Source of the DNA: a virus
Taxonomy: Duplodnaviria; Caudoviricetes
Length of the DNA: 64,000 nucleotides
Direction: 5' to 3' (one strand)
IMG/VR virus record: IMGVR_UViG_3300031998_000031
Location: 1 to 64,000 of that record
The translations under genes were made by a program, and so were the position numbers. Positions 428 to 36,216 of this stretch are shown here, one piece after another. How positions within the stretch are numbered: position 1 is the stretch's first letter; each line of letters begins with the position of its first letter. Under the pieces are notes generated by a model. The model was not told the origin of the DNA, did no database searches, and was given only the letters and a program-made list of their open reading frames with translations.

Positions 428-1861
428 TTATAAGATTCCATTTTTATGGTCTATCAGAGCGTCTGCCACTTCGAGCGAAAGCTCCTCTGCCGATTCAATC
501 ACATGGGAATATATATTGGATGTCGTCGATACGTCCGCGTGACCAAGGCGTTTCGACACGATGACCAAGGGTGTATTATTTGCTAACATCAAAGATGCAT
601 ACGTATGCCTCAAACTGTGCGGGTGAATCTCAGGGTAGCCGTACTTATCCGCGAAGGAGCGCATATGTGATGTGACCGTATTCGCGATGACAGGTGAGCC
701 ATCGTCGTAAACAAAAATGCGGTCTAAGCTGTTATTCCATACGTCTCCGAGCTTTCGTGCCTGCTGGTCCTGCCAAATCCTCAGCTCTGTGAGTATCGCA
801 AAGGCCGAGTCCGACAGCTTCAGCGAACGTACTGAATTCTTACTTTTAGGGGTGTCGATATACCAGCCATCTTCCGGGGTGTAAGCGGCAGTATGCCTTA
901 CGTTTATCATCTGGGAGCCCTTGGACAAATCGGACCAGCAGAGTGCGACTATCTCCGATTTTCGCAGGCCGGTGAGCAGGTCAAAGAGTACGAACGCTCT
1001 AAACCACATGGGCTCCTCTGCAAGGTGCCCGATGAAGTCTTTGACCTCATTTTCGTCAAGGTATGCCGCTTCTGTTTTCGTTTTTTTTGGCGGTTCGGCT
1101 CTTTTTGCCGGATTAGAATCAATATATCCCCATTTGCATGCGCTGCCGAGCATTGATTTGATGCATGCGTGGTATCTCAGGATGTAATTTGATGAGAGGA
1201 TATCGTCTTCCTTATCGCGTACAAAGAGGGTTTCGACCGGCACTTCAAAGTAAGCGCAAATCTTTTTTGCTATATCTTCAGTAACTGACTTGCCGTAAAT
1301 GATTCTGTATAGCGTCGATTGGCTGATGCCCATAAGTGAGGCTAATTCGGATTTAGACATTCCAGCTTTGCCGATATACTCCTTTGCCTTAGTGGGGCGC
1401 ATACGCTTCATAACAGGTATGCCAGCTTCGGCAAGATTCCTGTAAAACTCATTCAAGTGGCCGGCCTTAAGCTCTCGCAGTTTTATTCCTCCAATGGCGG
1501 TTTTTATTCTTGGTAAGAGCTGATTGTATGTATGGATGGTGCTCTTCTTGCAATTCCGTCTGACATGGTCCCTCATCCATATATCGATGAATTCTCCTGT
1601 GCGGATATTACTGGCGTTGACTGCTCCGCCACGGAACTTATCCTCAAAATCAAAGGCTATACGGTGAGCTTCGTTGTCAGCTCTCTTTTCGCTCATTCCT
1701 TCCGGGGGAGTCCATGTCATAGACGTCCGCTGCTGCTGTCCGTATTGGTCGTATCCATTCGATACGCGAATGTAGTAGGATGTTTTGCCGTTCTTATTTA
1801 TTCTCTTACGTATCTCAGGCATGTCTTTTCCACAGACTTTCCACGGAATTTCCGCAGACAT
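428..1861 (-). CDS. int: Tyrosine integrase with an inserted XRE-type HTH (alternative start 1822)
   Basis: TGLRKSE, TPK, HSLRHT, LGHAD..TT.NIY catalytic motifs; N-terminal arm-binding region. Confidence 0.95.
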   Translation of the reverse strand: MSAEIPWKVCGKDMPEIRKRINKNGKTSYYIRVSNGYDQYGQQQRTSMTWTPPEGMSEKRADNEAHRIAFDFEDKFRGGAVNASNIRTGEFIDIWMRDHVRRNCKKSTIHTYNQLLPRIKTAIGGIKLRELKAGHLNEFYRNLAEAGIPVMKRMRPTKAKEYIGKAGMSKSELASLMGISQSTLYRIIYGKSVTEDIAKKICAYFEVPVETLFVRDKEDDILSSNYILRYHACIKSMLGSACKWGYIDSNPAKRAEPPKKTKTEAAYLDENEVKDFIGHLAEEPMWFRAFVLFDLLTGLRKSEIVALCWSDLSKGSQMINVRHTAAYTPEDGWYIDTPKSKNSVRSLKLSDSAFAILTELRIWQDQQARKLGDVWNNSLDRIFVYDDGSPVIANTVTSHMRSFADKYGYPEIHPHSLRHTYASLMLANNTPLVIVSKRLGHADVSTTSNIYSHVIESAEELSLEVADALIDHKNGIL

Positions 1862-11610: not shown

Positions 11611-11649
11611 ACTAAAACACTTGACAATATATAATGGATATGATATATT
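11611..11649 (+). promoter_or_regulatory. Repeated strong sigma-A promoter, copy 1
   Basis: ACTAAAACAC-TTGACA-17bp-(TG)TATATT. Confidence 0.85.
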
Positions 11650-20712: not shown

Positions 20713-21213
20713 ATGTCAAAACCGAGCAGATACAATCCTGAGTACCATGATAATTGGGCGTGGTCACTGGCTATCAAGGGTGCGACCGATGAGGAAATCG
20801 CTGATGCCTTTGATATGTCACGTCAGACTATAGCCCGCTGGAAGGCCAAGTATCCTTCCTTTAACGAAGCTCTTAATAACGGAAAGGATATCGCGGACTC
20901 CAACGTAGAGAAGTCTCTCTACAAAAGAGCTGTCGGATTCACGTACGAAGAGTATGAGCGTTCGAAAGAGGTCGACAAGAACGGCGAGGTAAAGACCGTA
21001 AAGAACAAGACCGTCACCAAGACCGTTATTCCGGACACTATGGCCATTATGTATTGGCTGAATAACAGGAAGCGCGGTACATGGGCACAGAAACAGGAAG
21101 TTCAGCTATCTGCCAGTGAAGAAGGCGACACGAATATCATCATATCGTTGCCGTCGAATGGAAGGCGGAGATTTGTAGATGAAGGACCTGACGAAGCCGA
21201 ACAAGAAGAGTAA
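20713..21213 (+). CDS. terS: Terminase small subunit
   Basis: GATDEEIAD.F...T..RW...YP.F HTH, VEKSLYKRA.G, PDT.A..YWL.NR. Confidence 0.9.
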   Translation: MSKPSRYNPEYHDNWAWSLAIKGATDEEIADAFDMSRQTIARWKAKYPSFNEALNNGKDIADSNVEKSLYKRAVGFTYEEYERSKEVDKNGEVKTVKNKTVTKTVIPDTMAIMYWLNNRKRGTWAQKQEVQLSASEEGDTNIIISLPSNGRRRFVDEGPDEAEQEE

Positions 21214-22618
21214 CAAGAACTTAGTCGTTATAGCTCCGCAGCCGGGGCCTCAGATGGAGTTCTTGTCTACACCGGCGGACGTTGCTATATACGGCGGCGC
21301 TGCTGGCGGTGGAAAATCCTTTGCACTACTGCTTCAGCCTCTGGCGTTCGTAGATGTGAAGGGCTTCGGATGCACGATATTCCGAAAGAATCATATACAG
21401 ATATTCTCTGAGGGCGGCCTGTGGGATGAGTCCAAGACGCTCTATGGAAAGGTCAAGAATGCAGAACCGAGGAAAGGTTCAACATCTTGGATATTCAAAG
21501 ACAAGAACGGCAACGAGATATCCAAGGTCAGTTTTGCTCATATAGAGCGAGATGAGGAACTTCCGAACTGGCAGGGCAGCCAGATTTGCATGATAGGATT
21601 CGATGAGCTGACGCATTTTTCCAGACATACTTTTCTGTACATGCTATCCCGTAACCGTTCCCTTTGTGGCGTAGAACCATTTGTCAGAGGCACATGCAAC
21701 CCGGATGCCAACAGCTGGGTCGCGGAATTCATATCTTGGTACATCGACCAAGAGACGGGATACGCTATCCCGGAGCGCAGCGGCGTGATACGCTGGTTTT
21801 TGGTGTATCAGGATGTGGTTTACTGGGCGGATACGAAGCGGGAACTTGATGAGCAGTTCGCTTTCATTCCTCCGGGCCCAGACAAGCCGATTCCAAAGTC
21901 GTTTACATTCATCATGTCGAGTGTTTACGACAACAAAGAGCTGCTTAGAGTAAACCCCTCATATATATCCAACCTTAAGTCACTGCCGCTCATAGAGCAG
22001 GAGCGCTTGCTTAAGGGCAACTGGAAAATTAAGGCCTCTGCGGGCCTGTTCTTCAAGAGGACACAGGTTGGCGAGTTCTTGCAGGTGGTCCCGGATGATG
22101 TAATCAGATGGGTGAGGTGCTGGGACTTGGCAGCCTCAGAAAAGACCGACAAGGGCGACCCGGCATTTACCGCCGGAGTCCTGATAGGCAAACGCAAGAA
22201 TGGAAGGTATATCATAGCCGATGTGATAAGGCGGCAGATGAATTCCGGCGATGTCCGCAAGACCATAACTCATACAGCCCAGCAGGATATAGCCAAGTAC
22301 AAGCGGGTGAGGATAAGGGTCCCACAGGACCCCGGCCAAGCAGGCAAAGAGCAGGCCAACTCATATATCAAGCAGCTTTCAGGATACGACGTCGTGGCCG
22401 TGCTGGAATCTGGCAGCAAGGAATCCAGAGCAGAGCCTATGGCTGCGCAATGGCAGGCGGGCAACTTCGATATCCTTATAGGACCGTGGAACGATGAGTA
22501 CCTGCAAGAGCTTGAGAACTTCCCGGATTGGAAGTTTAAAGATATGGTCGATGCGTCGGCCAACGGCTTCAACGAGATAGAGACTAAGAGCCAGTTCAAT
22601 CTGGGCAACCTTATTTAA
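21179..22618 (+). CDS. terL: Terminase large subunit
   Basis: GGAAGGGKS Walker A, FDELTHF, TCNP, WDLA, D.VDA nuclease motifs. Confidence 0.95.
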   Translation: MKDLTKPNKKSNKNLVVIAPQPGPQMEFLSTPADVAIYGGAAGGGKSFALLLQPLAFVDVKGFGCTIFRKNHIQIFSEGGLWDESKTLYGKVKNAEPRKGSTSWIFKDKNGNEISKVSFAHIERDEELPNWQGSQICMIGFDELTHFSRHTFLYMLSRNRSLCGVEPFVRGTCNPDANSWVAEFISWYIDQETGYAIPERSGVIRWFLVYQDVVYWADTKRELDEQFAFIPPGPDKPIPKSFTFIMSSVYDNKELLRVNPSYISNLKSLPLIEQERLLKGNWKIKASAGLFFKRTQVGEFLQVVPDDVIRWVRCWDLAASEKTDKGDPAFTAGVLIGKRKNGRYIIADVIRRQMNSGDVRKTITHTAQQDIAKYKRVRIRVPQDPGQAGKEQANSYIKQLSGYDVVAVLESGSKESRAEPMAAQWQAGNFDILIGPWNDEYLQELENFPDWKFKDMVDASANGFNEIETKSQFNLGNLI

Positions 22619-22630
22619 AGGAGATTTACG

Positions 22631-23461
22631 ATGGATGATACGGTGAAGAGATTCAAAGAAAGACGTGCTGCAAGGATAATGGCTCGTATGGATGATTCTT
22701 TCGATGAGGGCAGATGGGTGACCACAGAAAAGGGTGACCATGTGCACCTCAACGAAGCCGGTGAGCCTGATGCGGGCAATAAGTACGTCATCGCAGCGAT
22801 GAAGTCGTATAAAGAACGCCCCAAGGCGGGTTTAAAGATAAAGAAGCCTAAGGAGTCATATGCAGAAAGCATAGGACAAAGCTCTTTTGTTCCTCAAGTC
22901 AAAAACGGTTATGTTATAGACAAGAAGGGCAATATACACGGCACAAATGTCCATAAGGGAAAGGACGGTGCATTGCACGCAACAGGAACGAAGATGGCGT
23001 TTGTCGATGAGAACGGCGATTCGTTCTACAGACCGTCAGAGTCATTCCTTGATGAGAACGGCGACGCTATCATTCTTGACCCTCCGGGCTATGAGGATAA
23101 CGCCGAGACTGCAAAGTCCGAGACGGCAAAGTCCGAGGCTCCGAAGTTTGAGGAAAAGACCTATGACCGTATCCCGCTTACGGCATATATGGGCTCTAAG
23201 TACGCAAGCCCCGAAGACCTAAAAAAGAAGAGAGAAACAATCAAGAGGTTCATAAAGGACGCCAAGGTTGGAAATGTCTATTCCGCTTCAGGCGGATTCG
23301 GAAGTGCCGGGGATTCTCTTTTTGAGATAGTGCACTCAAACAAATCCTCGAACCACATGGCTCTTAAATGGGTAAACTCAAAATATGGGCCAGTAGTGCT
23401 CAATAGCTCGAACGTTCTATCGTTTATCAAGAACGGCGCAAAGCTCGTAGAGCAGAAGTAG
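22631..23461 (+). CDS. Putative head cargo protein of unknown function with the shared leader
   Basis: MDDTVKRFKERRAARIMARMD leader, then WVTTEKGDHVHL. Confidence 0.7.
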   Translation: MDDTVKRFKERRAARIMARMDDSFDEGRWVTTEKGDHVHLNEAGEPDAGNKYVIAAMKSYKERPKAGLKIKKPKESYAESIGQSSFVPQVKNGYVIDKKGNIHGTNVHKGKDGALHATGTKMAFVDENGDSFYRPSESFLDENGDAIILDPPGYEDNAETAKSETAKSEAPKFEEKTYDRIPLTAYMGSKYASPEDLKKKRETIKRFIKDAKVGNVYSASGGFGSAGDSLFEIVHSNKSSNHMALKWVNSKYGPVVLNSSNVLSFIKNGAKLVEQK

Positions 23462-23470
23462 GATAGAAAC

Positions 23471-25300
23471 ATGGACAAGGCAGTTTTTGAATTCAGGATG
23501 AGGAGATATCAGAGGCTGGCGTCCAGAATGGATGCAGACGATGATGAGACTGGCGGCGGCGCTATGTATCGCCTGCCGTATGGCCTTTGCAACAACGCTG
23601 GCATAGATACTACAGGAATGTCTCCGACAGATGCTTGGAATGCACTGAAGGATAAGACCGGCTTTGGCCATGATGAGGCTTTGAAGCAGCTCAAGGATAA
23701 CAGCAAGGCCAAGAGTAAGAAGATAAAGTCTTTAAGCAAATCCATAATCAAGTATCAGGAAAAGGTCGACAGCTATGGAAGCGAAGACGACTATGATACA
23801 CAGCAGCTCATCTATTACGCTGGGCACCTTAAGGAGTATCGCAAAGATTTAAAGAACGCGAAGAACAACTTAGAATACTACACCTCCGAGGCTGACTACT
23901 GGGAAAAGGCTTCACAGACAAGCTATGAGGAGTGGTACAAAAACCATGAAATGTACAAGAACCTTTGGGGCTATAGCGATGAGGAGATGCGGGCTGATTA
24001 CGACAAGAATATAGCCGACTGGACCGGCATTGCTAAGACGTACAGAGAGCGGGCGAAGGATAACGAAGAAAAAATCGCCACGCTTACACCTTTAATCGAA
24101 AAGGCCGAGAACTACGCTCACGACAAAAAGATGCTTGTCAAAAAGCAGGCGGAGCTTGAGACCTTAAAGCACACCCCGGACTACTTTAACGAGCAGACCG
24201 CGGAAAAGGGCAAAGAGGCAAAGGCAGCATACATCAGTAAGAAAAAGGGTGAATGGGATTCTAAGGTCAAATCCAAGGTCGAGGAGATGCTCAAGCTCGA
24301 TGAGAGCGAGTATTCTGGAATTTGGAAGGATAAGACCGTAAGGCCGTCCGAGTACGAAGAGTACAAAGATAGCATAGAGAAGAAACGTGCCTATTATGAG
24401 ATGAATCTGCATGACCCCGATTCGGATGCAGACAAGGTCGCACGAGCTCAGGAAAAACTGAAGCAGCTTGACGATTTTGAAGAGAAGGGCAAGCAGTACC
24501 AGCAGCTGAGTAAAGAGCTGGCAAAGACTCAGGCTAAGGCTTCTAAGTGGGGCGCTCAGACTCTGGGCATGGCCGAGAAGCGTATGAAAGATACGCCTTG
24601 GAAGACCAAGCAGGAGGCTTACGATACCCTGATAAGCGGATGTGTAGATGTCTGGACGAATGCCTCCATGGATGAGCGCAAGGCCGCGCACAGATACACC
24701 GGCAACTTCAGCCCGTTCAACGAACCATTAAGAGGCATCGAATACGGCACGAGCGAGTACAAGGGTGTAGACAATATCGACTTCGACCATATCGGCAAGT
24801 ACGACGACGGCCAGACAAAGAAAGATATTATCAATCTTACCAACATGATAAGCCGGTCCGAGTGTCCGGAAGATATGTGGCTCCAAAGAGGCGTAGGTAC
24901 CAAGGGCGCGAGCAAACTCTTGGGCGTGTCGCAGAGCTTTCTTCAGAATGCTACTACCGAAGACTTGCAGTCGCTCGTCGGCACTACCCCCACGGAGCTG
25001 GGATTTTGCAGCTGTGCAACAGCCAAGGGCAGCGGGTTTGCGTTTAAGGATGTCATTCTTAACATATTCGCGCCGAAGGGCACAAAGATGCTGTATACGG
25101 AGCCGTTCTCTCAGTACGGCTCTGGCGCTAAGTCCGTGGGCTGGGGCGGAAGCACGGGACAGTCTGATATCAGCGATGAGTGCGAAACTCTTCTTCAGCA
25201 GGGCACCAAGTTCCGCGTAGCTAAAGCGTACGTCGGTTCTAAGATATACTTTGACCTTGTAGTTATCGGAGACAACCCGAAGGACCTCACGAAGGTGTAG
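23471..25300 (+). CDS. VIP2/Alt-like ADP-ribosyltransferase with the shared leader
   Basis: C-terminal YTG...NEPLRG, LQRG, GFCSCA, PKGT, ECETLL..GTKF (R-S-ExE triad). Confidence 0.88.
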   Translation: MDKAVFEFRMRRYQRLASRMDADDDETGGGAMYRLPYGLCNNAGIDTTGMSPTDAWNALKDKTGFGHDEALKQLKDNSKAKSKKIKSLSKSIIKYQEKVDSYGSEDDYDTQQLIYYAGHLKEYRKDLKNAKNNLEYYTSEADYWEKASQTSYEEWYKNHEMYKNLWGYSDEEMRADYDKNIADWTGIAKTYRERAKDNEEKIATLTPLIEKAENYAHDKKMLVKKQAELETLKHTPDYFNEQTAEKGKEAKAAYISKKKGEWDSKVKSKVEEMLKLDESEYSGIWKDKTVRPSEYEEYKDSIEKKRAYYEMNLHDPDSDADKVARAQEKLKQLDDFEEKGKQYQQLSKELAKTQAKASKWGAQTLGMAEKRMKDTPWKTKQEAYDTLISGCVDVWTNASMDERKAAHRYTGNFSPFNEPLRGIEYGTSEYKGVDNIDFDHIGKYDDGQTKKDIINLTNMISRSECPEDMWLQRGVGTKGASKLLGVSQSFLQNATTEDLQSLVGTTPTELGFCSCATAKGSGFAFKDVILNIFAPKGTKMLYTEPFSQYGSGAKSVGWGGSTGQSDISDECETLLQQGTKFRVAKAYVGSKIYFDLVVIGDNPKDLTKV

Positions 25301-25317
25301 CATCGTGAAGAATATAT

Positions 25318-25356
25318 ACCAAAACGCTTTACAAAGCATGGCAAATGTGGTATACT
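25318..25356 (+). promoter_or_regulatory. Repeated strong sigma-A promoter, copy 6 (upstream of ART partner genes)
   Basis: ACCAAAACGC-TTTACA-17bp-(TG)TATACT. Confidence 0.82.
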
Positions 25357-25376
25357 CACTTTTGGAGGTGTGATAA

Positions 25377-25649
25377 ATGTCTGAGAATAAATCGATAGTC
25401 GACAGATACGGCGACGAAGTTCTTACGGATAACAGTAAGATAATCAAATTCAGACAATGTATCGATTGCGTACACAGGGCAGACCGTGGTACGGCTTTGG
25501 ACTGGCTGGGATTCCAGAAGCAGTTCTGTAGGCAGTTCGACGGTGAAAGGACCCCGTTCAAGCCGCTCGAATTCAGCTTGGATGAGGATGACCCTGAATA
25601 CATGGAGTGCCTTCTGTACTGCAAAGATACAGACGAAGAGAGCGAATGA
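25377..25649 (+). CDS. Small Cys-containing ART partner (immunity-like)
   Basis: C..C.H...C..F...KP...C..Y; lies between ART and ARH; GGAGGTG RBS. Confidence 0.7.
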   Translation: MSENKSIVDRYGDEVLTDNSKIIKFRQCIDCVHRADRGTALDWLGFQKQFCRQFDGERTPFKPLEFSLDEDDPEYMECLLYCKDTDEESE

Positions 25650-26482
25650 CAGGGAATAAGAAACTTAGCGACGCTATATTGGGGCTTGCCATAGGCGATG
25701 CCCTTGGAGTCCCGTATGAATTCTACATGCGGGGCGCTTTCAAGTGCTGGGATATGGTAGGATTCGGTACCCATCACCAGCAGCTCGGAACATGGTCCGA
25801 TGATACTTCGATGACCATAGCGACAGCAAAGAGCATCAAGGGCCACAACGGCACAATCGATGTCGATGATATGCGCCAAAACTTCATGGAGTGGTTCACT
25901 GAGGGCAAATTTACCCCCGGAGGCAGAGTGTTCGATATCGGCTGCACGACGATGAATGCTTTGGCATCCGGCGAGCCCGGAGTCGATGTCCGAGATAACG
26001 GGAACGGCTCACTGATGCGGATACTGCCGCTGGCGTTCACCGATTGTTCAGACGATGAGATAAGAGCGGTGTCGGCTATTACTCACGGGCACTTCTTTTC
26101 AACAGAGGCCTGTGTGATATATGTACATATTGCAAGGAAGCTGCTGGAGGGCGAGGATATAGATGCTATAATCCCAACGCTCGTTTACGAGTATCCGTTC
26201 AACAGGCTGAGCATGATTAACACCCTAAGCGAGGACGTCATATCGTCAAGTGGATATGTCGTATCGACTTTGGAAGCTGCACTGTGGGCGATAGTTCACC
26301 GGGACAAAGATGAGCGCAGTTTCAAGCAGACGGTGCTCGACGCAGTAAACCTTGGCTACGATACTGACACGGTGGCAGCTGTGACAGGCGGCCTTGCCGG
26401 TATAATATACGGACTCGACGGCGAAGATGATTGGCTATCTAAGTTGAAGGGCAAAGATATAATCATGGACTGCCTCTGGTAG
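25646..26482 (+). CDS. ADP-ribosylglycohydrolase (DraG/ARH family)
   Basis: GDALG, WSDDT, GNGSLMR, TH, DTDT.AAV.G motifs; ATGA overlap with upstream gene. Confidence 0.95.
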   Translation: MTGNKKLSDAILGLAIGDALGVPYEFYMRGAFKCWDMVGFGTHHQQLGTWSDDTSMTIATAKSIKGHNGTIDVDDMRQNFMEWFTEGKFTPGGRVFDIGCTTMNALASGEPGVDVRDNGNGSLMRILPLAFTDCSDDEIRAVSAITHGHFFSTEACVIYVHIARKLLEGEDIDAIIPTLVYEYPFNRLSMINTLSEDVISSSGYVVSTLEAALWAIVHRDKDERSFKQTVLDAVNLGYDTDTVAAVTGGLAGIIYGLDGEDDWLSKLKGKDIIMDCLW

Positions 26483-26546: not shown

Positions 26547-29408
26547 ATGGGCGAACCTTTAATTACACCAGAGCTTCAGGCTCGATATGACAGCATCATC
26601 CGGCAGCAGACCGGCGTTAGTGATTACCGTAATGATGGTTTCGTTAACTTCGTCACCAAGTACGGGACCTACAGCGATGCCAACGAACACTACTTTTTCA
26701 TGCCGGAAGCAGATGTTTCCGACGACACGCTGACCAGATTCTATGAAGGAAATGGACTGTTCGCAAAGATAATAGATGTCCCGGCGGAAGAGGCAATGAA
26801 GCACGGGTTCACGCTTGGCGATTTGGCCGATGCCGAAATCATTGATTACTACCAGAAGATATGTGAAGACCTTGACTTGGAAGAGTCCATGACCATAGGC
26901 ATGCGCTGGGCAAGACTTTTCGGCGGTTCGATAGGCGTAATGCTTATCGACGACGGAAGGGGCATAGACGAACCTCTCGATTGGAAGCACATAAAATCCG
27001 TCGATGGCATCCGCGTTTTTGAGCGTGCGATAGTCCAGCCTGATTACCAAAGCATGTTTAGGTATCAGCACAAGGACCCGTACAGGGCCAGACGGAAGGT
27101 CATTGGCAGTCCTGAGTATTATTACGTGACGAGCAAGTACGGATATTTTGCCGTGCACGAGAGCAGGACATTGCCGTTCCTTAACGGAACACTGCCTGAG
27201 AATACATCGAACAGCGTATATCAGATTTGGGGCCTGCCTGAATACATAAGGCTCCATAGAGCCATACGCGACGCCGAGACCGCGCACGGAAGCGCGAACA
27301 AATTGCTCGATAGGTCGGTGCAGGCAGTCTATAAGATGAAGAACCTTTCCGAGGAGCTTGCGACAGAACAGGGAGAGGAAAGAGTCCTTAAAAGGCTTCG
27401 GACCATCGACATGGCGAGGGGCCTTTTAAACAGCATTACGATAGATGCCGAGGGCGAAGAGTACGACTTCAGACAATTCACCTTTACTGGAGTGTCTGAT
27501 GTAATCGACTGCACCTGCAACTTCGTTTCGGCGCTTACGAACATACCGCAGACCATACTGTTCGGGCGCAGTCCCGCCGGTATGAATTCCACGGGCGAGT
27601 CAGATAATGAGAGTTGGTACAGCTTCGTAGAGCGCATCCAAAAGAGGATGCTCAAAGGCAATCTCAGATATCTTACATCTATCATCTTTGCGGCTGGAAT
27701 AAATAGCGGCAAGCTCAAGGAATTCCCCAGCTTCGAGATAGAGTTTAACCCGCTGTGGACGCAGAGCGAAGCCGAAAAGGCTGACCTTGACCTCAAGAAG
27801 GCCCAGACGGCTCAGACCAGAGCGGCGACTGCGATGACTTATATCCAGAATGACGTAGTAACGCCTGAGGAAGTCAGGAAGAACCTTGCCGATTCTGATG
27901 AGTTCGATGTCGAAACGATGCTCGACGATATACCCGAAGATGAGCTGATGTCTGAAGATATCATGAATGACATGATGAATGCGCAGCAGCCCGGAAACGG
28001 ACAAATGCCGCCCGGAAACGCGCCGGGTGGTATAAATCCCCAACAGCCCGCAGAAAACCCCGCTATAGGGCAAGGGCAGGCTCAGGCTGCCGATTCTGAT
28101 GTAGATGCGAGCTACGAGGATATCGTCAATATGGAGACCGCGAAACGCGTCAACGAATCCATGGCCGCGGAGGAAGAACCTGAGACCAACGAAGATTCTG
28201 AGGCGGATGTCGAGCAGGCCTATGAAGATGTGGTGAATCACGAGACCGCGATACGCGTAAACGAGTCCTTGGACTACAGTATGGAGTTCGATGAGGACCC
28301 TGATACGGAGTCCCCGGTCGATGCTGAAAATTTCGGCGTCGGAATCTTAGTGATAAAGGACGGGAAGATACTTCTGGGCGAAAGGCTCCAAGGTAATCAG
28401 CCCGGAACGCTTTGTGGTCCCGGCGGACATATACACGTTGGAGAAACGCCGCTTCAGGCTGCTATAAGAGAGTCTGACGAAGAGTTCGGAATCATCCCCA
28501 CAGACCTAATGTACATCGGCTCCCTGAAGAACGAGCGCGGTAAGTCATATCAGTTCCTGTGCACCGATTACGAAGGCGAAATCACGGCCAAAGATGGCGA
28601 GATGGGCAGCCCACGTTTTGTTGACCCGCAGTGGTTGATGGAAAATCAGGACAAACTGTTCTCTCCGTTCGCTCAGGCTGCTGGCATGACATTCTATAAG
28701 ATAGGGGCCGCCGATAACAACCCCTTTAATACGGATGGAGATGAGCCTGATGGATGGATTGCAGAAGATGGTAATCGTACTTCTGCTGATAGCGACGATA
28801 ATCTTGTGGAAGGACAACCTGAGGCCGTAGAGCAGCGCCTTGGCGAAGGTATAGACAGCCGCTTGGATGGTGGCCCCGGCTCCGGCAACTTCGGACACGG
28901 AGGGAGACCCGGTGAAATCGGAGGTTCGGCTCCGAACGACAGCTCAGGCAGTGCTAATACTGAAGAAAATGCACCCAAACACTTGACAAACAAGGGCGAA
29001 CGTGATACGATTCAATCACAAAAGAGCACTAATCCCGGCCCCGTAGTTAAAATAAATTCTTCCGAACTGCGTGAAGCGCTTAAGAGCGGAAAGATAAGCA
29101 CAAAACTGCGGATGTCTCGACAGAACAGGCATATAAAGGGGACGCCCGAATACGAGGCTGCATCCAAGACCAGAAACGTCGGATATATCACGATAACCCC
29201 TGAGGAGGTTAGAGAGATAATCGAAAAATACGCTGGCCGGGGCGCAGCTTACGGAAACGGAGTCCAGTTCAAAGAGACCATCGATGTCGGGAAGGTGATT
29301 GGCGTACACGTAAGCAGAGCGGGGAAAGAGAGCGAGACTACGAGATGCACCATCCACTATGGAGAAAAAGGTGCTCACATAGTGCCCGCGGCCCCGGCGA
29401 GGTATTAG
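26547..29408 (+). CDS. Portal protein (DUF1073-like) fused to a Nudix hydrolase and a C-terminal Ntox50-like toxin domain
   Basis: Portal motifs ARLFGGS, IPQT.LFG.SP.GMNSTGESD, F.PLW; Nudix box at 28422-28490; toxin QNRH..GT...TIHY..KGAHIVP. Confidence 0.88.
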   Translation: MGEPLITPELQARYDSIIRQQTGVSDYRNDGFVNFVTKYGTYSDANEHYFFMPEADVSDDTLTRFYEGNGLFAKIIDVPAEEAMKHGFTLGDLADAEIIDYYQKICEDLDLEESMTIGMRWARLFGGSIGVMLIDDGRGIDEPLDWKHIKSVDGIRVFERAIVQPDYQSMFRYQHKDPYRARRKVIGSPEYYYVTSKYGYFAVHESRTLPFLNGTLPENTSNSVYQIWGLPEYIRLHRAIRDAETAHGSANKLLDRSVQAVYKMKNLSEELATEQGEERVLKRLRTIDMARGLLNSITIDAEGEEYDFRQFTFTGVSDVIDCTCNFVSALTNIPQTILFGRSPAGMNSTGESDNESWYSFVERIQKRMLKGNLRYLTSIIFAAGINSGKLKEFPSFEIEFNPLWTQSEAEKADLDLKKAQTAQTRAATAMTYIQNDVVTPEEVRKNLADSDEFDVETMLDDIPEDELMSEDIMNDMMNAQQPGNGQMPPGNAPGGINPQQPAENPAIGQGQAQAADSDVDASYEDIVNMETAKRVNESMAAEEEPETNEDSEADVEQAYEDVVNHETAIRVNESLDYSMEFDEDPDTESPVDAENFGVGILVIKDGKILLGERLQGNQPGTLCGPGGHIHVGETPLQAAIRESDEEFGIIPTDLMYIGSLKNERGKSYQFLCTDYEGEITAKDGEMGSPRFVDPQWLMENQDKLFSPFAQAAGMTFYKIGAADNNPFNTDGDEPDGWIAEDGNRTSADSDDNLVEGQPEAVEQRLGEGIDSRLDGGPGSGNFGHGGRPGEIGGSAPNDSSGSANTEENAPKHLTNKGERDTIQSQKSTNPGPVVKINSSELREALKSGKISTKLRMSRQNRHIKGTPEYEAASKTRNVGYITITPEEVREIIEKYAGRGAAYGNGVQFKETIDVGKVIGVHVSRAGKESETTRCTIHYGEKGAHIVPAAPARY
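28973..29011 (+). promoter_or_regulatory. Repeated promoter, copy 7, embedded in the portal-toxin CDS
   Basis: ACCCAAACAC-TTGACA-17bp-(TG)TACGAT just upstream of the toxin-domain codons. Confidence 0.7.
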
Positions 29409-29409
29409 T

Positions 29410-29628
29410 ATGGATGATGAGAAACTGTTAGACGCGATGGCTGAATGCGAGCAGCGGACGGCTGAAGTCAAGCTGAAGGATAACAGCATTATAAAAGGAT
29501 TCGTAGATGTCTTTGAAGACAGATGCGACAACGAGGATGGCAAGGCCTCAATCTGCCTGATGACAGAAAAGGGCGGAGCCATAATCGATGAGAGTCAAAT
29601 CGAGAGTATCAGAGCTATTGATAACTAA
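29410..29628 (+). CDS. Putative immunity protein for the portal-fused toxin
   Basis: 72-aa acidic ORF 1 nt after the toxin stop. Confidence 0.7.
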   Translation: MDDEKLLDAMAECEQRTAEVKLKDNSIIKGFVDVFEDRCDNEDGKASICLMTEKGGAIIDESQIESIRAIDN

Positions 29629-29660: not shown

Positions 29661-29717
29661 CACAGGTATAAGAAAGCCGAGGGGACTTCACCCCCTTCGG
29701 CTTTTGTTATGCCTGTG
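29661..29717 (+). terminator. Long hairpin terminator
   Basis: CACAGGTATAAGAAAGCCGAGGGG / CCCCTTCGGCTTTTGTTATGCCTGTG. Confidence 0.7.
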
Positions 29718-29746: not shown

Positions 29747-30676
29747 ATGAATAATCAAATATACCGGGAGACCGTAAAAAGGGTCGTACAGGACGATTTT
29801 AAGGGTCAGGAACAGGTCGCGAGCAAGAAGATGCCACGATACCCGATGTCATCCGAGCGGCAGATGCGCATGATTACTAATGCGTATATGAGAGTCCTGA
29901 ATGAGGAGCTAAAAAAAGAGCTTCCGACAATCCTTGCAGCCTACAAGGGCGAGCGAGCTGATATGCGCATGGACGACGCGTCAGACTTCAGAAGCGCGGT
30001 CCGCAGCGCGTTCTACAGGATTCTGCAACGGATGGAGAAGCGCTATTCGAATTTCGAACTTGAAGAAGAGCTGACCCGCATATCCAAGATGACCAAGGAC
30101 CGGGCCAAGCGCGAATGGCAGCAGATGATTAAGCGCACGTTCGGCGTCAATATCTTGGAGGACTATTACAGCGATGCGTTCTACCAAGACATGTTGAAGC
30201 AGTGGGTAGACGAAAACGCGGCTAAGATACAGTCGATACCCAAGGACGCCTTGGACGATATACAGGAAACGATTCTCGAAGGCTACGAAGAGGGCTTGAC
30301 CATAAGAGACATGGCAAAAGAGGTCCAGAAGGACTACGACATGTCAAAGCGTAAAGCCACGCTGCTGGTAAGGGACCAAGTAGGGACCCTGAATGCCGAT
30401 ATCACAAGGCGGCAACAGGAAGACGCCGGTGTGAGCGAGTATAAATGGTCGGATTCGCATGATGAGCGCGTCAGAGACTGCCACAGAGAGTTCAATGGCC
30501 ATATATACCGATGGGATGACCCGCCGGAAGAGTGGTACGACACCAAGAGCAGAGGCCGGGTATACACCGGGAAGTATTACAACCCCGGAGAATCACACTG
30601 CTGTAGATGCTGCGCGATACCAGTATTTAATATCAACACGTTCGATATTCCGATACAGCCCGTATTCGAGGAATAA
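29747..30676 (+). CDS. MuF/SPP1 gp7-family minor head protein (no toxin extension)
   Basis: RDQ...LN, Y.W....DERVR..H...G..Y.WDDPP, PG...CRC. Confidence 0.92.
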   Translation: MNNQIYRETVKRVVQDDFKGQEQVASKKMPRYPMSSERQMRMITNAYMRVLNEELKKELPTILAAYKGERADMRMDDASDFRSAVRSAFYRILQRMEKRYSNFELEEELTRISKMTKDRAKREWQQMIKRTFGVNILEDYYSDAFYQDMLKQWVDENAAKIQSIPKDALDDIQETILEGYEEGLTIRDMAKEVQKDYDMSKRKATLLVRDQVGTLNADITRRQQEDAGVSEYKWSDSHDERVRDCHREFNGHIYRWDDPPEEWYDTKSRGRVYTGKYYNPGESHCCRCCAIPVFNINTFDIPIQPVFEE

Positions 30677-30691
30677 AAACGATAAAAGGCA

Positions 30692-30729
30692 ACTAAAACG
30701 CTTTACAAATTAAGATAATATGCTATAAT
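30692..30729 (+). promoter_or_regulatory. Repeated strong sigma-A promoter, copy 8
   Basis: ACTAAAACGC-TTTACA-16bp-(TG)TATAAT. Confidence 0.78.
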
Positions 30730-30751: not shown

Positions 30752-32131
30752 ATGGATAAGGCTGTCGAAGAATACAGAAAACGTAGACAAATCCGGCTCG
30801 ATGCGAAAAAGGCCGTAGCGGACTATAAGCAGCGGCGATATGAAAGAATCATGAGCAGGGCGTTCAGAGTCGATAACTTTGCTGGCATGGTATATGCCAC
30901 GCTCAAGGATGAGGGAATCGACACTCAGGACATGGAGCTTCCCGAAGCCATCGAAAAGTTCAACGAGCTGAAAGGCAAGAACGGTGGTGGCTCGAAAGAT
31001 ACTTCTGCAAAGACCCCCAAAGAGGCAAAGACTCAGAGCGGGAGCGAACCCCCTCAAAACAAAGCTCCTGTGGCCAAGGCCTCCAAGCCGACAACAAAAA
31101 GCTCTGTGCCTGCCTCAAAGGGTCTTAAAACAGCGTCCGAAAGTTCAAAAGCGAAAAAGAGCGCCGCAAACGAAAAGCCGCAGGAGGCTAAGGGCAGTCC
31201 TGAGACATCAAAGGCGGTCGGCTATGTCAAGACCGGCAAGAACGGCAACCTTATCCCTAAGACCGAAACTGCTAAGACCATCGACGTAAAGGGCACGATT
31301 GAGCACAATAAAGACGGCAGTATCAAGCCTAACTCTCTCACAAAATACATCGATAAGGACGGCAATCTGAGCCCTGAGCGTCAGGCGGTCCACGATGAGA
31401 TAATCAAAAAGTTCTTTGCTGAAAAGGTCCCGTTCGACGGACAAGCCACTATGATAATGGCTGGCGGCGGTCCGGCGTCTGGCAAGTCCTTCATCAGTAA
31501 GGGCGCAAATTCTCAATTTGGAAAAGATACCACTGTCAAGATAGACCCCGACGAATTCAAGGCTATGCTTCCGGGATTCAAGGATATGGCTATCGAGACC
31601 GATGAGGCCGCCGGGTTCTATCACGAAGAGTCCTCCGCGCTGGCAAAGAGAGCATATCAGTTTGCTGCTGACAACAACCTGAATGTGGTGTATGATGGAA
31701 CTGGAGATGGTTCTGTAAAGAGCGTCATGAAGAAGCTCCAGACGGCACGTGATGCTGGATACAAAATCACGGGACAATACGTCACAGTCGACACGGATGA
31801 AGCTGTAAAGAGGAACCAGCAGAGATATGAGAACGCTTTAGCCAAGTACAACGCTGGAGAGAGTGAAATTCCCCCGAGACTTGTCTACGAAAATTATGTT
31901 CGCGATATACACAGCGCTGTATCAGATATTTCCATACAGGTCGCAAATCTTTATGATAGCTTCGAGCTGTATGATAACAATGTTCCGCAAGGCTCTCCAC
32001 GGATACTTATCGCAACCTGTTCAAAGGGTGGCGATTTGACCGCCGTAAAAGGGCAGGAAGATAAGCTCCAGAGGTACTTGAATAAAGGAAAGTCTGGAGC
32101 AAAGGTGGTAAATGGTGTCGTAAAGAATTGA
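30752..32131 (+). CDS. Zeta-toxin-family P-loop kinase with a duplicated shared leader
   Basis: GGGPASGKS, IDPDEFK, HEESS, VYDGT, A..RN..R motifs. Confidence 0.85.
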   Translation: MDKAVEEYRKRRQIRLDAKKAVADYKQRRYERIMSRAFRVDNFAGMVYATLKDEGIDTQDMELPEAIEKFNELKGKNGGGSKDTSAKTPKEAKTQSGSEPPQNKAPVAKASKPTTKSSVPASKGLKTASESSKAKKSAANEKPQEAKGSPETSKAVGYVKTGKNGNLIPKTETAKTIDVKGTIEHNKDGSIKPNSLTKYIDKDGNLSPERQAVHDEIIKKFFAEKVPFDGQATMIMAGGGPASGKSFISKGANSQFGKDTTVKIDPDEFKAMLPGFKDMAIETDEAAGFYHEESSALAKRAYQFAADNNLNVVYDGTGDGSVKSVMKKLQTARDAGYKITGQYVTVDTDEAVKRNQQRYENALAKYNAGESEIPPRLVYENYVRDIHSAVSDISIQVANLYDSFELYDNNVPQGSPRILIATCSKGGDLTAVKGQEDKLQRYLNKGKSGAKVVNGVVKN

Positions 32132-32142
32132 GGTGATGTGAT

Positions 32143-32361
32143 ATGAGTGTAGAAAAAAGAAAGTACACTGGTTCGGCTCGTGATGTATTTGACATGACGC
32201 GAGCGCTGAATGCTGAGCTTTCAGTTGAGGAGTGCGGCTTCGAACTGGACGAGGAGCACAAAGCGGGATATGAAAGAGACCTTAAATGGCTGAAGGACCA
32301 GAGGGCTGAAAACCCCGGCGTTCCGATAGCCTACGACGTTAAGTATTCGTATTTAGATTGA
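32143..32361 (+). CDS. Putative antitoxin/immunity protein
   Basis: 72-aa ORF directly after the Zeta-like gene, then a terminator. Confidence 0.62.
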   Translation: MSVEKRKYTGSARDVFDMTRALNAELSVEECGFELDEEHKAGYERDLKWLKDQRAENPGVPIAYDVKYSYLD

Positions 32362-33000: not shown

Positions 33001-34635
33001 ATGTCTGCCCCCACGTTAACAAGAGTCACGCGGCTCGATGCGATGCCGTTTGGTGCTACATATTACACGGCTGAAGGATTCCTGAGAGATAGCCCGATAC
33101 TTACCTCTACGGGAATCTTTGAGTATACGAACTACGATGGTTCGAAAAGAAGGGAGCTTCGACTTCCTGAGGATGTTTTTGACCCTGAAAGCTTGGCGAG
33201 TTACCTTGGCAAGCCTGTGGTAATCAGTCACGATGCGGGACTCATCGACAAGAATAATGTCAGTGAGAATTCAATCGGAACGATTATCAGTAAGGGTTAC
33301 CAGTCCGGCAATGACGTTCGTGCCGATATCGTAATCCACGACACGGACGATATGAAGAGTTGTGGCTTCAAGGAGCTATCCCTTGGATACAGCCTTGACT
33401 TGGATGAGACGCCCGGTGTCTGGAATGGCGAACGGTACGATGCTGTTCAGAAGAACATCCGCATTAACCATTTGGCTTTGGTGCGGGAAGCCAGAGCTGG
33501 TGAGCAGGCTCGACTGAATATTGACAGCCGAGACGCAAAAACTCTTATAGGAGGAAAAGTAATGAAGAAAAATCCCAAGAAGACCAGTCGTGCTGACGGA
33601 ATTCTCTCTCCTGAAGAGCTTGAAAAGGCCATTAAGGAGTACAAGGCAAAGAGAGCTTCCGAAGTACAGGCTGACGAAGACAAGCCTGAAAAGGCTGTCG
33701 AGTCTGTTGCGGTCGAGGAAAAAGAGGTCGCGGCGGAAGTTCCGGCTGAAGAGACCCCTGCCGTAGCAGAAGAGACCCCTGCCGAGGTAGAGGAAGAGCC
33801 CCTTGTCGTCGAGGAAGACGAAGACGATGAAGAGGAAGTCACCGAACCTGTGGAGGAGCCTGAGACCGTCGAGGAACAGGTAGCTGTTCTCAAAGAGAAC
33901 CGCGACCGTAGAGATGAGGACGGAGACCCTAAGGATGTCGACGACGCTATGGTTACCATCGCCCATCAGGACGAAGATATTCAGAAACTGTTCGATATCA
34001 TCGATACCCTTCTCGCTCAGAGAGACTTCAAGGAATCTAAGGAAGATTCTGCTGACGAAGACATCCCCGACGCTGAAAAGGGTGACGTACCGTTCGAGGC
34101 GGAGCCCAAATGTGACGGTAAGAACTGCGATTCCGAAGACGTCCTTGTAGAAGAGGAAGTCAACGAGGATGAGGACGACGAAATCGTTGAAGAGGAAGTC
34201 GTTGAAGAGCCTGTAGAGGAAGTCAACGAGGACGAGGATGAGGAGGAAGAGGACGACGAAGAGGAAGAGCTTCGCGTCAATACCGATTCTGTAGATGAGA
34301 TAGTCCGCACTAAGGTAAATCTCGGAATGCTCGGTCGCGGCCTTGGCATTGAGGGTCTTGAGAACCTCAAGATAAAGACTGCTAAAAAGGCAATCATCAG
34401 CGCAGTCAGACCCAACATGAGACTTGACGGAAAGTCCGATACCTTTGTAAACGTGGCCTTTGATATGGCCGTTGCAGAGATAGAGGCAAAGTCCGTTAAG
34501 GATACAAACTATCAACTTAAGCAGATGTTCAATTGCGACGCTGCAACCGTTAAATCCAATGACATACCCTCTGCAACTGAAGCGCGTCAGAGAATGATTG
34601 ACCGTCAGCAGAGAAAGAACAAGGAGGAAAAGTAA
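33001..34635 (+). CDS. DUF2213 prohead protease/scaffold (nested scaffold start at 33562)
   Basis: GIFEY, ELSLGY, NHLALV..ARAG; acidic C-terminal half; internal AGGAGG plus in-frame ATG. Confidence 0.88.
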   Translation: MSAPTLTRVTRLDAMPFGATYYTAEGFLRDSPILTSTGIFEYTNYDGSKRRELRLPEDVFDPESLASYLGKPVVISHDAGLIDKNNVSENSIGTIISKGYQSGNDVRADIVIHDTDDMKSCGFKELSLGYSLDLDETPGVWNGERYDAVQKNIRINHLALVREARAGEQARLNIDSRDAKTLIGGKVMKKNPKKTSRADGILSPEELEKAIKEYKAKRASEVQADEDKPEKAVESVAVEEKEVAAEVPAEETPAVAEETPAEVEEEPLVVEEDEDDEEEVTEPVEEPETVEEQVAVLKENRDRRDEDGDPKDVDDAMVTIAHQDEDIQKLFDIIDTLLAQRDFKESKEDSADEDIPDAEKGDVPFEAEPKCDGKNCDSEDVLVEEEVNEDEDDEIVEEEVVEEPVEEVNEDEDEEEEDDEEEELRVNTDSVDEIVRTKVNLGMLGRGLGIEGLENLKIKTAKKAIISAVRPNMRLDGKSDTFVNVAFDMAVAEIEAKSVKDTNYQLKQMFNCDAATVKSNDIPSATEARQRMIDRQQRKNKEEK

Positions 34636-35151: not shown

Positions 35152-36216
35152 ATGAAGACCGAAAAGGACAAGAACCAGAAATATGACAAGGCGGAAGCTA
35201 AGACTCTGCTCAACTCTGCAATCCCTGCTGCTATCATGGCTTCCGAAGGAACCCGTTTCGATAGCGCGGAAGAGGCTTCCGTATTTTTCGCAAGAGAGCT
35301 CGACCACGTAAAGAGCGAATCTTACGACGTCGAGTATCCTGAGCTTACAGCCCTGAATCTTTTCCCCATCAGCTCTGAAGTAGATGCCGGTGCAGAGACC
35401 ATTACCTACTACACCTATGACAGACAGGGCCTTGCCGATATAATCGACAACTACAGCACTGACCTGCCCAGAGCTGACGTAAGCGGCAAGCCGTCTTATG
35501 CAACCATCAAGTCCATCGGCGCAAGCTATGGCTACTCCACTCAGGAAATGAGAGCTTCCAGACTTGCCAACAAGTCTCTCGATGCTCGCAAGGGAGAGGC
35601 AGCTCGCTATGCCATCGACAACAAGATTAACCAGATTGCATGGGCTGGCGATGCAGATGCTAAGCTGCTTGGCGTTCTGTCTGATGGACAGAACATTCCG
35701 TTCTACACCATTCAGGCTGGTGCCACCTCTGGCGCTACCAAGTGGACCGAGAAGACCGCAGATGAGATTCTCGATGACGTAAACGGAATGGCCAAGCAGG
35801 TCGCTAAGGTCACCAAGAACGTAGAGAGACCTGATACTCTCGCCGTACCGGCTGACGTCTACATGCACATCAGCACCAAGAGAATCCCCGATACCGCTCA
35901 GACCGTACTCGGATTCCTCCTTGAGCATTCTCCGTATATCAAGGATATCGTAAACGCTGCCGAGCTCGACGCTGACAGTCCTGAGACCAACCCGTACGCT
36001 GAGGGCGCTCCGGGAGTTGCTCCGGATGCTGGCGTAGGCGTAGCGTTCCTTTTCAAGAATGATGCTCGCAAGCTCACTCTTGAGGACCCGATGCCTTTCT
36101 ATCAGTATCCGCTCCAGACAAGAAACCTTGAGACCGTGATTCCTTGTGAAGCAAGAACCGCCGGTGTCATCGTTTACTATCCGCTCTCCTGCCTCATCGC
36201 AGTAGGCGTTTGCTAA
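35152..36216 (+). CDS. Major capsid protein (DUF2184/encapsulin-like HK97 fold)
   Basis: FFARELD.V....YD.EYPEL, DLPRAD, E.RTAGV.VYYP; strong RBS and terminator. Confidence 0.92.
   Translation: MKTEKDKNQKYDKAEAKTLLNSAIPAAIMASEGTRFDSAEEASVFFARELDHVKSESYDVEYPELTALNLFPISSEVDAGAETITYYTYDRQGLADIIDNYSTDLPRADVSGKPSYATIKSIGASYGYSTQEMRASRLANKSLDARKGEAARYAIDNKINQIAWAGDADAKLLGVLSDGQNIPFYTIQAGATSGATKWTEKTADEILDDVNGMAKQVAKVTKNVERPDTLAVPADVYMHISTKRIPDTAQTVLGFLLEHSPYIKDIVNAAELDADSPETNPYAEGAPGVAPDAGVGVAFLFKNDARKLTLEDPMPFYQYPLQTRNLETVIPCEARTAGVIVYYPLSCLIAVGVC

Follow-up and report, generated by a model that had tools for sequence, protein, structure and literature searches.

A phage portal gene of gut Clostridia, probably extended into a polymorphic-toxin carrier, with a predicted immunity promoter inside its coding sequence

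The virus record IMGVR_UViG_3300031998_000031 (Duplodnaviria; Caudoviricetes) of IMG/VR was analyzed over its positions 1 to 64,000, and the window below means this whole stretch of 64,000 nucleotides (nt). At 26547..29408 on the plus strand lies an open reading frame (ORF) of 953 amino acids (aa) that encodes, in this order, a portal domain, an acidic linker, a Nudix domain, a second linker housing a junction motif and a promoter, and an Ntox50 domain. A 72-aa gene, referred to here as P0002, follows at 29410..29628 on the same strand. The fused ORF is the sole portal gene of the phage, and nothing else in the 110,939-bp genome matches PF06381. We consider it probable that, through this extension, the portal has become a portal-anchored polyvalent, polymorphic-toxin protein.

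A preliminary description made from the letters alone had read the ORF as a three-domain fusion of portal, Nudix, and Ntox50, and in the domain search all three Pfam domains scored above their curated cut-offs. The portal domain (aa 1-466; 26547..27944, plus strand) is of the PF06381/TIGR01555 type, as supported by Pfam, PHROG, PDB, and AlphaFold2 (AF2) evidence. Phage_portal_3 (PF06381/DUF1073) matched aa 63-423 with an E-value of 3.8e-74 and 250 bits (cut-off 33.8), and phrog_15528 matched with an E-value of 1.3e-170; the TIGR01555 match reached 155 bits, under its 196-bit equivalog cut-off. Similarity to solved portals was found for 9jlf (E 3.8e-25), Pam3 8hds (3.3e-16), and E217 8fvh (1.5e-11). 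The Nudix hydrolase domain (aa 591-722; 28317..28712, plus strand) matched NUDIX over aa 597-698 with an E-value of 2.5e-13 and 50.6 bits (Pfam cut-off 21.1), and its matches to MutT/NudE equivalogs were weak and far under their cut-offs. The Nudix box pointed out in that description is intact at aa 626-648 (nt 28422-28490), where the pattern G-x5-E-x7-REsdEEfGI reads G HIHVG E TPLQAAI RESDEEFGI, and a regular expression found it intact in nearly all of the best 120 homologues as well.

An AF2 model of the 953-aa protein, built from a 40-sequence alignment, contains three confident modules, namely the portal at about aa 55-465, the Nudix domain at about aa 590-722, and the Ntox50 domain at about aa 838-950. 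The Nudix module shows an alpha/beta/alpha pattern with a predicted local distance difference test (pLDDT) score of about 85-92, and the inter-module stretches aa 467-584 and aa 728-837 have a pLDDT below 50. In this model the layout is that of beads on a string, with folded modules joined by two predicted-disordered linkers. The first of these, linker 1 (aa 467-590; 27945..28316, plus strand), is acidic, with 32 Asp or Glu versus 3 Lys or Arg residues in aa 471-595. It houses the duplicated YED.VN.ETA.RVNES module that had been noticed earlier and that we located at aa 523-538 and aa 559-574, a spacing of 36 aa. The duplication is visible in the DNA as a 67-nt direct repeat (28098-28164 and 28206-28272, 73% identical), and the duplicated module aligns with the single-copy APAATKLPQDMS motif of relatives. 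No peptidase family was found inside the 953-aa protein with Pfam, NCBIfam, or PHROGs. The protein carries at least two effector-type domains (Nudix and Ntox50) on one virion-gene polypeptide, which is how polyvalent proteins were defined by Iyer et al. (2017).

The C-terminal domain (aa 838-953; 29058..29408, plus strand) is assigned to the Ntox50 RNase toxins of the BECR fold on the basis of Pfam and PDB matches and an AF2 pLDDT of about 90-95. Ntox50 (PF15542) matched aa 857-947 with an E-value of 1.4e-17 and 64.6 bits (Pfam cut-off 22.2). The H ... H ... HxVP motif listed for Ntox50 (Zhang 2012, PMC3482391) is kept in the form of His862 (NRHIKG), His937 (TIHYG), and His944 (His-Ile-Val-Pro). 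The domain aligns to the C-terminal domain of YxiD (9v8i_B, E 1.5e-12) and to MafB2-CT (8hhj_B, 1e-5), and His944 is the alignment counterpart of YxiD His528, the residue whose mutation was the authors' way to inactivate YxiD (PMC12700104). YxiD-CT is a toxic metal-dependent tRNase that is neutralized 1:1 by its immunity protein (PMC12700104). The Ntox50-like C-terminus first described is thus borne out by a profile match, conserved histidines, and homology to a solved tRNase toxin. On this homology the C-terminal domain is a predicted tRNase-type toxin, the activity being known from the homologues YxiD-CT and MafB2. The Ntox50 type is common to other delivery systems, including the LXG toxin YxiD of the type VII secretion system (T7SS) and Neisseria MafB2.

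The 72-aa gene that had been placed directly after the toxin indeed starts one base past the portal stop codon, its GAGG Shine-Dalgarno sequence lies within the last portal codons, and the gene appears translationally coupled to the portal. A terminator-like hairpin (29679-29697) with a T-run (29679..29707, plus strand) follows it and would close the promoter-immunity unit. In a profile search the P0002 family (phrog_1865) comprised 65 clusters of 59-139 aa, mostly 67-90 aa, with no Pfam domain. We collected 55 loci from one-genome-per-species data, nearly all of them from gut or rumen Clostridia (Oscillospiraceae, Lachnospiraceae, and Christensenellaceae). P0002 homologues occurred in only three of these loci (L002, L003, and L022), the very ones with Ntox50, and stood directly after the toxin stop codon. 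The P0002-Ntox50 pair was also found after a separate 941-aa effector ORF, itself 3' of a 1,404-aa portal (L057/L058), and after a separate Nudix-Ntox50 gene, itself 3' of a portal-glutamine-deamidase fusion (L061/L062). Finally, P0002 follows a 221-aa Ntox50 protein amid Dit-like, PAAR, sheath-initiator, and wedge genes (L059/L060), so that the pairing is seen in four carrier contexts. Because its family accompanies Ntox50 in every delivery context examined, and with the support of the cluster covariation presented below, the downstream gene proposed earlier as the immunity partner of the toxin is, judging from gene neighborhoods, the cognate immunity gene of Ntox50.

No second copy of the immunity gene or of Ntox50 was found in the 110,939-bp genome. 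Ntox50 stands without a listed immunity family in Zhang et al. 2012 (PMC3482391), and P0002 gave no sequence match to PDB chains, including YxxD and MafI2. The AF2 model of P0002 (pLDDT 88.6) consists of one helix and a five-stranded barrel, a predicted Sm/Hfq-like small barrel whose resemblance to Sm/Hfq/YaeO (Foldseek E-value ~1e-3, template-modeling score ~0.63) is a fold-level similarity that carries no functional claim. A 188-aa antisense ORF over the toxin and immunity region (29016-29582, minus strand) has no homology support and was taken as spurious.

More than 6,000 database proteins matched the fused portal, and the domain make-up of the homologues was read from the best 120 clusters among these matches. 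All 120 contain portal and Nudix domains, at lengths of up to 1,656 aa, and differ at the C-terminal end, which is Ntox50 in 19 clusters, an ADP-ribosyltransferase (ADPrib_exo_Tox, PF03496) in many, a glutamine deamidase (Gln_amidase, PF15644) in a single one, a Zeta toxin (PF06414) in another single one, and of no known type in others. The Nudix domain was likewise present in 38 of 44 full portal genes, and by these sequence counts portal-Nudix forms a conserved core common to a very large family. Among isolated phages, Faecalibacterium phage FP_Brigit comes closest; its 828-aa portal (gp30), annotated only as 'portal protein', carries a different cassette type (T2).

To follow the exchange of C-termini, the last 105 aa of long portals and the coupled downstream small ORFs were clustered independently; the last 160 aa proved unusable, as shared junction and Nudix residues merge all sequences. 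Toxin cluster and small-ORF cluster covaried in 16 of 16 cases, in four types (T0, T1, T2, and T5) on homologous portals. The Ntox50 ends are paired with P0002 (4 loci), the DUF4258-like ends with small proteins of an acidic helical family (6 loci), and the FP_Brigit-type ends with a zinc-ribbon family (4 loci); a fourth toxin and small-ORF pair occurs at 2 loci. Portals ending after the Nudix domain are without coupled small-gene partners. The toxin swapping suspected in the preliminary description is supported by these four end types and their covariation with the downstream genes, the C-terminus being anything but invariant. By this comparison the C-terminus behaves as a predicted polymorphic toxin that is exchanged together with the following small gene. 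In some relatives near-identical spacers stand before different toxins, which suggests that spacer and junction serve as a homology arm for the exchange. Three portals (L004, L007, and P0026) end ~34 residues past the start of the terminal junction, and these truncated junctions look like cassette-loss scars.

The promoter embedded in the portal gene is of the sigma-70/sigma-A type and extends over 28973..29011 on the plus strand, with the upstream element ACCCAAACAC, a -35 hexamer at 28983-28988, and a -10 hexamer at 29006-29011. The sequence TTGACA-17-TACGAT first seen at 28983-29011 was confirmed there, with 10 of 12 hexamer positions and a TG at 29003-29004. The promoter is overprinted on the codons of aa 809-822 in the predicted-disordered linker 2, and stands between the junction motif (28866..28934) and the toxin domain (from 29058). 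Eight matches to the 17-nt sequence ACYAAAACRCTTGACAA, searched with up to 3 mismatches, were found in the window versus 0.43 expected, a number reached by none of 100 shuffles; genome-wide there were 15 matches, all on the plus strand, and the reversed-pattern control gave 0 and 1. The embedded copy (28973-28989) has one mismatch, agreeing at 16 of 17 positions, and shares the extended -10 geometry of the other copies.

The family as a whole can be written ACYAAAACRC-TTGACAA-N14-TG-N-TATAAT-like and occurs in the window at 11611, 12281, 15080, 17058, 17838, 25318, 28973, and 30692, and elsewhere in the genome at 76564-97351. Its 10-nt element directly 5' of the -35 hexamer is conserved more than sigma-A requires and may act as an UP-like element or bind a shared regulator. 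Of the family copies, three lie in the head module, one before the ADP-ribosylhydrolase gene, one within the portal gene, and one before the Zeta-like kinase gene. The other seven window copies are intergenic. Downstream of the embedded copy, the first start with a ribosome-binding site is that of the immunity gene, ~390 nt away, and no Shine-Dalgarno-preceded start was found between the two. An in-frame Met at aa 858 was rejected as the start of an alternative product, as it has no ribosome-binding site and would cut off the first Pfam toxin residues.

Among the relatives, a promoter scoring at least 10 is located 390-520 nt before the gene end in 13 of 16 cassette-bearing portals, with all four cassette types represented. 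The remaining 35 kb of the same 16 genes gave 5 matches, and 24 cassette-less portals (46 kb) gave 2, one of them in L047, which in fact has a DUF4258 cassette. The reverse strand of the segments gave 4 matches, and codon shuffles a mean of 1.3 and a maximum of 7 in 200. The promoter is read in two frames, xTT-GAC-Axx (Ile/Leu-Asp-Lys) with a 16-nt spacer and TTG-ACx (Leu-Thr) with a 17-nt spacer, the query belonging to the latter, and the peptides from the two frames are unrelated. Because the signal is conserved across two reading frames, selection most likely acts on the DNA promoter and not on the peptide, and this pattern argues for selection at the DNA level. L058 and L059, whose Ntox50 ORFs are free-standing, also have the promoter within these ORFs, just 5' of the junction. 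Recurring in 13 of 16 relatives, the predicted promoter is a conserved cassette feature and not a peculiarity of the query gene. The earlier claim of an immunity promoter hidden within the coding sequence is therefore supported by membership in the 17-nt family and by positional conservation. A MAFFT alignment had made the promoter segment look like a query-specific insertion; this was discarded, as DNA comparison shows the spacer to be homologous to the '...D-T-I-K-S...' spacer of relatives. The query keeps their promoter-bearing spacer but without their second junction. The general cassette order is a predicted promoter in linker codons, a Gly-rich junction, the toxin, its stop codon, and the immunity gene, followed in the query by the terminator.

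RLD-GGPGSG was found at aa 772-780, as first described, and belongs to a 23-residue motif, DGGPGSGN[FH]GHxG[RV]PGxxGGS[AL]P, which reads DGGPGSGNFGHGGRPGEIGGSAP in the query (aa 774-796; 28866..28934, plus strand) and is common to >1,100 protein clusters. In longer homologues this junction motif precedes each extra module in 1-4 copies, giving up to four junction-separated modules. A search with a 41-aa sequence around it against 1.84 billion representative proteins returned 1,137 clusters at an E-value of at most 1e-3, with up to 10 copies per protein and proteins of up to 2,574 aa. The sampled junction carriers, with their 2H, ART-PolyVal, MuF, Fic, Zeta, and ADPrib_exo_Tox domains, correspond to the polyvalent phage proteins described by Iyer et al. 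(2017). In the passages of the polyvalent-protein and MuF papers that were searched for linkers, cleavage, or motifs, no description of the junction motif was found. R-x-D was dropped as a general cleavage site, as only the Asp before GGPGSG is conserved in relatives. An alternative junction-like motif, HPRD-x-x-G-x-F with a Gly/Ser run after R-L-D, occurs in a 235-aa protein of the window (19542-20249). The same motif stands in the FP_Brigit portal (L001, aa ~675-700) after the embedded promoter, where DGGPGSG would be expected.

In the working that we propose, the whole fusion would be made late in infection, its translation coupled to that of the immunity protein. As the portal ring, up to 12 copies would be built into the procapsid so that the cargo points inward, the dodecameric ring and ~12 cargo copies per virion being an inference from established portal biology. 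A protease, perhaps the DUF2213 maturation enzyme encoded nearby, would then free the cargo by cutting in or close to the junction motif. Such release from a polyprotein is plausible because of the beads-on-a-string model, the recurring junction, the sole portal gene, and the nearby maturation protease. The freed cargo would exit with the DNA into the next cell. From the embedded promoter, host RNA polymerase would make immunity mRNA independently of the late operon, in lysogens, early after entry, or both. Kin lysogens or the phage's own infection would be protected from the delivered RNase, and cells without the antidote would suffer tRNA cleavage. Delivery with the DNA and protection of lysogens correspond to the MuF-toxin model of Jamet et al. 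(PMC5576092). A wider reading, which we put forward tentatively and hold to be somewhat less than an even chance, is that promoter, junction, toxin, and immunity gene form a universal mobile cassette of packaged effectors. It would recombine at the junction among portal, MuF, free-standing, and baseplate carriers, with the junction as targeting or cleavage signal and the promoter immunizing lysogens.

Several observations speak against a portal-borne, proteolytically released toxin with a promoter-driven antidote. The bare hexamer match is weak, with 15 such sites in 8 kb versus 8.8 +/- 2.9 expected, and the embedded promoter lies ~390 nt 5' of the immunity start codon versus the 9-40 nt that separate the predicted transcription start from the gene start for the seven other window copies. 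Three of the 16 cassette-bearing relatives are without a promoter at the threshold used, and several of the relatives share near-identical spacer DNA, so that they represent ~9 lineages rather than 16 independent cases. RLD is not conserved in the relatives, where the Asp alone is kept, and no cleavage-site consensus is derivable. In many free-standing effectors the junction is also found among the first 50 residues, a position as compatible with a packaging signal as with a cleavage site. A reading of the promoter-like sequence as chance, or as the by-product of a conserved peptide, with immunity expressed solely via translational coupling, would draw on the modest hexamer enrichment, the 390-nt leader, and the coupling signals (a start one base past the stop codon and GAGG upstream). 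It is nevertheless very unlikely, as the site fits a genome-specific 17-nt family at 16 of 17 positions, keeps its place across 13 of the 16 relatives although two frames with unrelated peptides (I/L-D-K versus L-T) encode it, and is depleted in all the controls (the rest of these genes, cassette-less portals, the reverse strand, and codon shuffles). That the ORF is an assembly chimera or a frameshift artifact joining a portal to unrelated genes was a concern raised by its source in a metagenome-derived virus record. We regard this as effectively refuted, since the same architecture recurs in many independent assemblies and metagenome-assembled genomes of several Clostridia families, the frame is open throughout, and the linkers are conserved. 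The 19 portal-Nudix-Ntox50 clusters among the best 120 come from independent assemblies, L002, L003, and L022 show the same domain combination, and the isolated phage FP_Brigit has its 828-aa portal with another cassette type.

Two further alternatives concern what the cargo does. The delivered RNase could be a host-takeover or anti-defence effector that briefly cripples host translation or defence RNAs at entry, with the embedded early promoter turning the toxin off once the phage DNA is inside. The 17-nt promoter family elsewhere drives small-gene islands typical of early regions, two more head-module copies precede the genes of the ADP-ribosylhydrolase (copy at 25318) and of the Zeta-like kinase (copy at 30692), and Iyer et al. 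proposed takeover or counter-defence roles for head-packaged BECR RNases and Nudix domains (PMC5512222, PMC9503650). However, strict toxin-immunity covariation is a kin-discrimination signature in other polymorphic toxin systems, and a tRNase would hamper the making of its own antidote. We judge takeover to be the less likely of the two purposes and favor kin protection because of the toxin polymorphism and the temperate lifestyle. Alternatively, the cargo might never be released, staying tethered in the capsid or acting in the producing cell, for example with the Nudix domain clearing nucleotide signals; the toxin-immunity pair would then be a selfish, addiction-like module on an essential gene. 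Such retention would agree with the absence of a peptidase domain from the 953-aa protein (Pfam, NCBIfam, and PHROGs), with the lack of a conserved cleavage consensus past Asp-Gly-Gly, and with the N4 virion RNA polymerase, which is packaged without processing (PMC5512222). In contrast, junction-toxin-immunity units on free-standing proteins and in a baseplate/PAAR context argue for delivery, long disordered linkers and repeated junctions fit processing, and a toxin that never meets its target is not expected to diversify. Retention is improbable in our estimate, and release of a portal-anchored toxin followed by delivery remains the preferred reading.

Nuclease colicin operons contain a constitutive-type promoter within the toxin gene, from which the antidote is made without the toxin. 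The promoter described here differs in that it lies in a virion structural gene of a late operon, accompanies four unrelated toxin types, is written in two frames, and sits on a disordered linker. In phage T4, the internal proteins and Alt are packaged into the head by means of a capsid targeting sequence, cleaved by the gp21 protease, and injected with the DNA. Targeting of these proteins and of P1 DarA/DdrB goes via a short N-terminal leader or a scaffold and not via a covalent portal fusion, and none of them is known to have an immunity partner. DarA/DdrB of P1 are likewise packaged in the head and injected with the DNA. Their processing is described in PMC5512222.

The fusion type itself is already known, since portal-Nudix and portal-RNase fusions have been published (Iyer et al. 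2017, 2022). In these papers, portal- or MuF-fused BECR RNases, 2H, InPase, ADP-ribosyltransferase (ART), and T4 NudE-like Nudix domains are predicted to be packed into the head and injected (PMC5512222, PMC9503650). The query shares with these polyvalent proteins a junction motif that also punctuates ART-PolyVal, 2H, Fic, Zeta, and MuF proteins, and differs in that the MPTase or other processing peptidase, frequent though not universal there, is absent from it. The passages of these papers that were searched contain no covarying portal immunity genes, no promoter embedded at a module edge, and no DGGPGSGN...GGS junction. MuF toxins combine a conserved head-protein N-terminus with a variable C-terminal toxin, Ntox50 included, and a small downstream ORF as putative immunity gene (PMC5576092, PMC3482391). 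The likeness extends to temperate phages of gut Firmicutes and to a carrier with a swappable toxin and a small downstream ORF. However, the carrier here is the portal, essential and presumably present in 12 copies per virion versus 1-2 copies of MuF in SPP1, and a constant Nudix enzyme stands between carrier and toxin. YxiD-CT/YxxD of the B. subtilis T7SS LXG system (9V8I, PMC12700104) and MafB2-CT/MafI2 of Neisseria (8HHJ, PMC9970974) have a homologous toxin, the HxVP motif, and an immunity gene directly downstream. They are delivered by T7SS or Maf secretion, whereas delivery here would be from the phage capsid, and the 72-aa immunity protein is unrelated in sequence to YxxD and MafI2.

We could find no earlier description of four points: that toxin and immunity gene covary strictly on a portal carrier, that Ntox50 can be assigned an immunity family, that promoter, junction, toxin, and immunity gene form a conserved cassette whose promoter is overprinted in two frames, and that the junction motif is so widespread. 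The packaging of effectors in phage heads has been predicted in print but hardly followed up by experiment in gut phages, and this locus gives several elements of the prediction a concrete, testable form. It offers a defined toxin homologous to a solved tRNase, a formerly unassigned immunity family for Ntox50, and a candidate transcription start at ~29018 from which the antidote could be expressed without the late operon. The junction motif, which is short and extremely widespread, could be a processing or packaging signal of polyvalent cargo. The two-frame promoter on a disordered linker is a clean natural case of DNA-level signals constraining a coding sequence. If lysogens are immune and non-lysogens poisoned, temperate phages of the dominant gut Clostridia would be vehicles of kin-discriminating toxins; if the cassette is universal, the virions of gut Clostridia phages would be a major, previously unrecognized route of polymorphic-toxin warfare. 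FP_Brigit is cultivable and has the same design with another cassette type, which makes virion proteomics feasible; a literature search on FP_Brigit virion proteomics returned nothing useful.

The host record is a complete virus genome of 110,939 bp with terminal repeats. An integrase gene (phrog_1) lies at 428..1861 on the minus strand, and the window also encodes a contractile-tail structural module; the phage is a complete 111-kb temperate-type myophage of gut Clostridia. The genes of the head module run in the order large terminase (TerL), portal, MuF, protease, and major head protein. TerL (21179..22618) is followed by a leader-bearing gene of no assigned function (22631), a leader-bearing ADP-ribosyltransferase of 609 aa (start 23471; phrog Bxa ART), and a Tri1/DraG-like ADP-ribosylhydrolase (25607..26482) ahead of the portal. 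Downstream of the portal cassette stands the MuF or SPP1 gp7-type minor head protein (309 aa; 29747..30676, plus strand). The description of this gene, the usual toxin carrier, as bare holds, as Pfam places only a MuF domain at aa 170-290 with no C-terminal toxin extension. Next come a Zeta-toxin-like kinase of 459 aa (30752..32131), the DUF2213 (Pa193_gp24 family) head maturation protease/scaffold (33001..34635, plus strand), which is the candidate processing enzyme, and the major head protein (35152..36216).

Within the head module, the region 23471-26482 contains in sequence the ADP-ribosyltransferase, the family promoter at 25318, a 90-aa Cys-rich protein, and the Tri1/DraG-like ADP-ribosylarginine hydrolase. 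Transferase and hydrolase look like a writer and its eraser, in parallel with the toxin and immunity gene of the portal cassette, and in relatives an ADP-ribosyltransferase is carried as a portal fusion rather than as a separate gene as at 23471. The Zeta-like kinase has its Zeta domain at aa 228-399, is preceded by a strong promoter of its own (TTTACA-16-TATAAT plus TG, 30702-30729), and has a 72-aa gene 3' of it (unit 30752-32361); in the relative P0086 a Zeta domain is joined to the portal C-terminus. An alignable basic leader (MDKAV..Y/F-R-x-RR-x-x-R-L/I ... R-M/L-D) opens three otherwise unrelated head-module proteins (22631-22700, 23471-23540, and 30752-30875) and is present twice in the Zeta-like kinase. 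A similar doubled leader precedes the junction motif in the 221-aa Ntox50 protein of an unrelated phage (L059:4339-4480). This leader may be a capsid-targeting leader for free-standing cargo.

Some relatives encode the polyvalent chain in two ORFs 2-5 nt apart (L057/L058:2160-2170 and L061:2760-2770), the second ORF opening with the junction motif in L058 and with a 250-aa domain of no known type in L061. At L061:5630-6258 an inserted PhdYeFM antitoxin/PIN toxin pair separates the Ntox50 immunity genes from MuF, and in L061 a second small ORF (70 aa) stands directly 3' of the immunity gene. Finally, the junction-Ntox50-immunity unit at L059/L060:4339-5237 belongs to a tail/baseplate module, with Dit-like, PAAR, and sheath-initiator genes as neighbors, and the cassette may also be loaded on the contractile-tail tip instead of the head.

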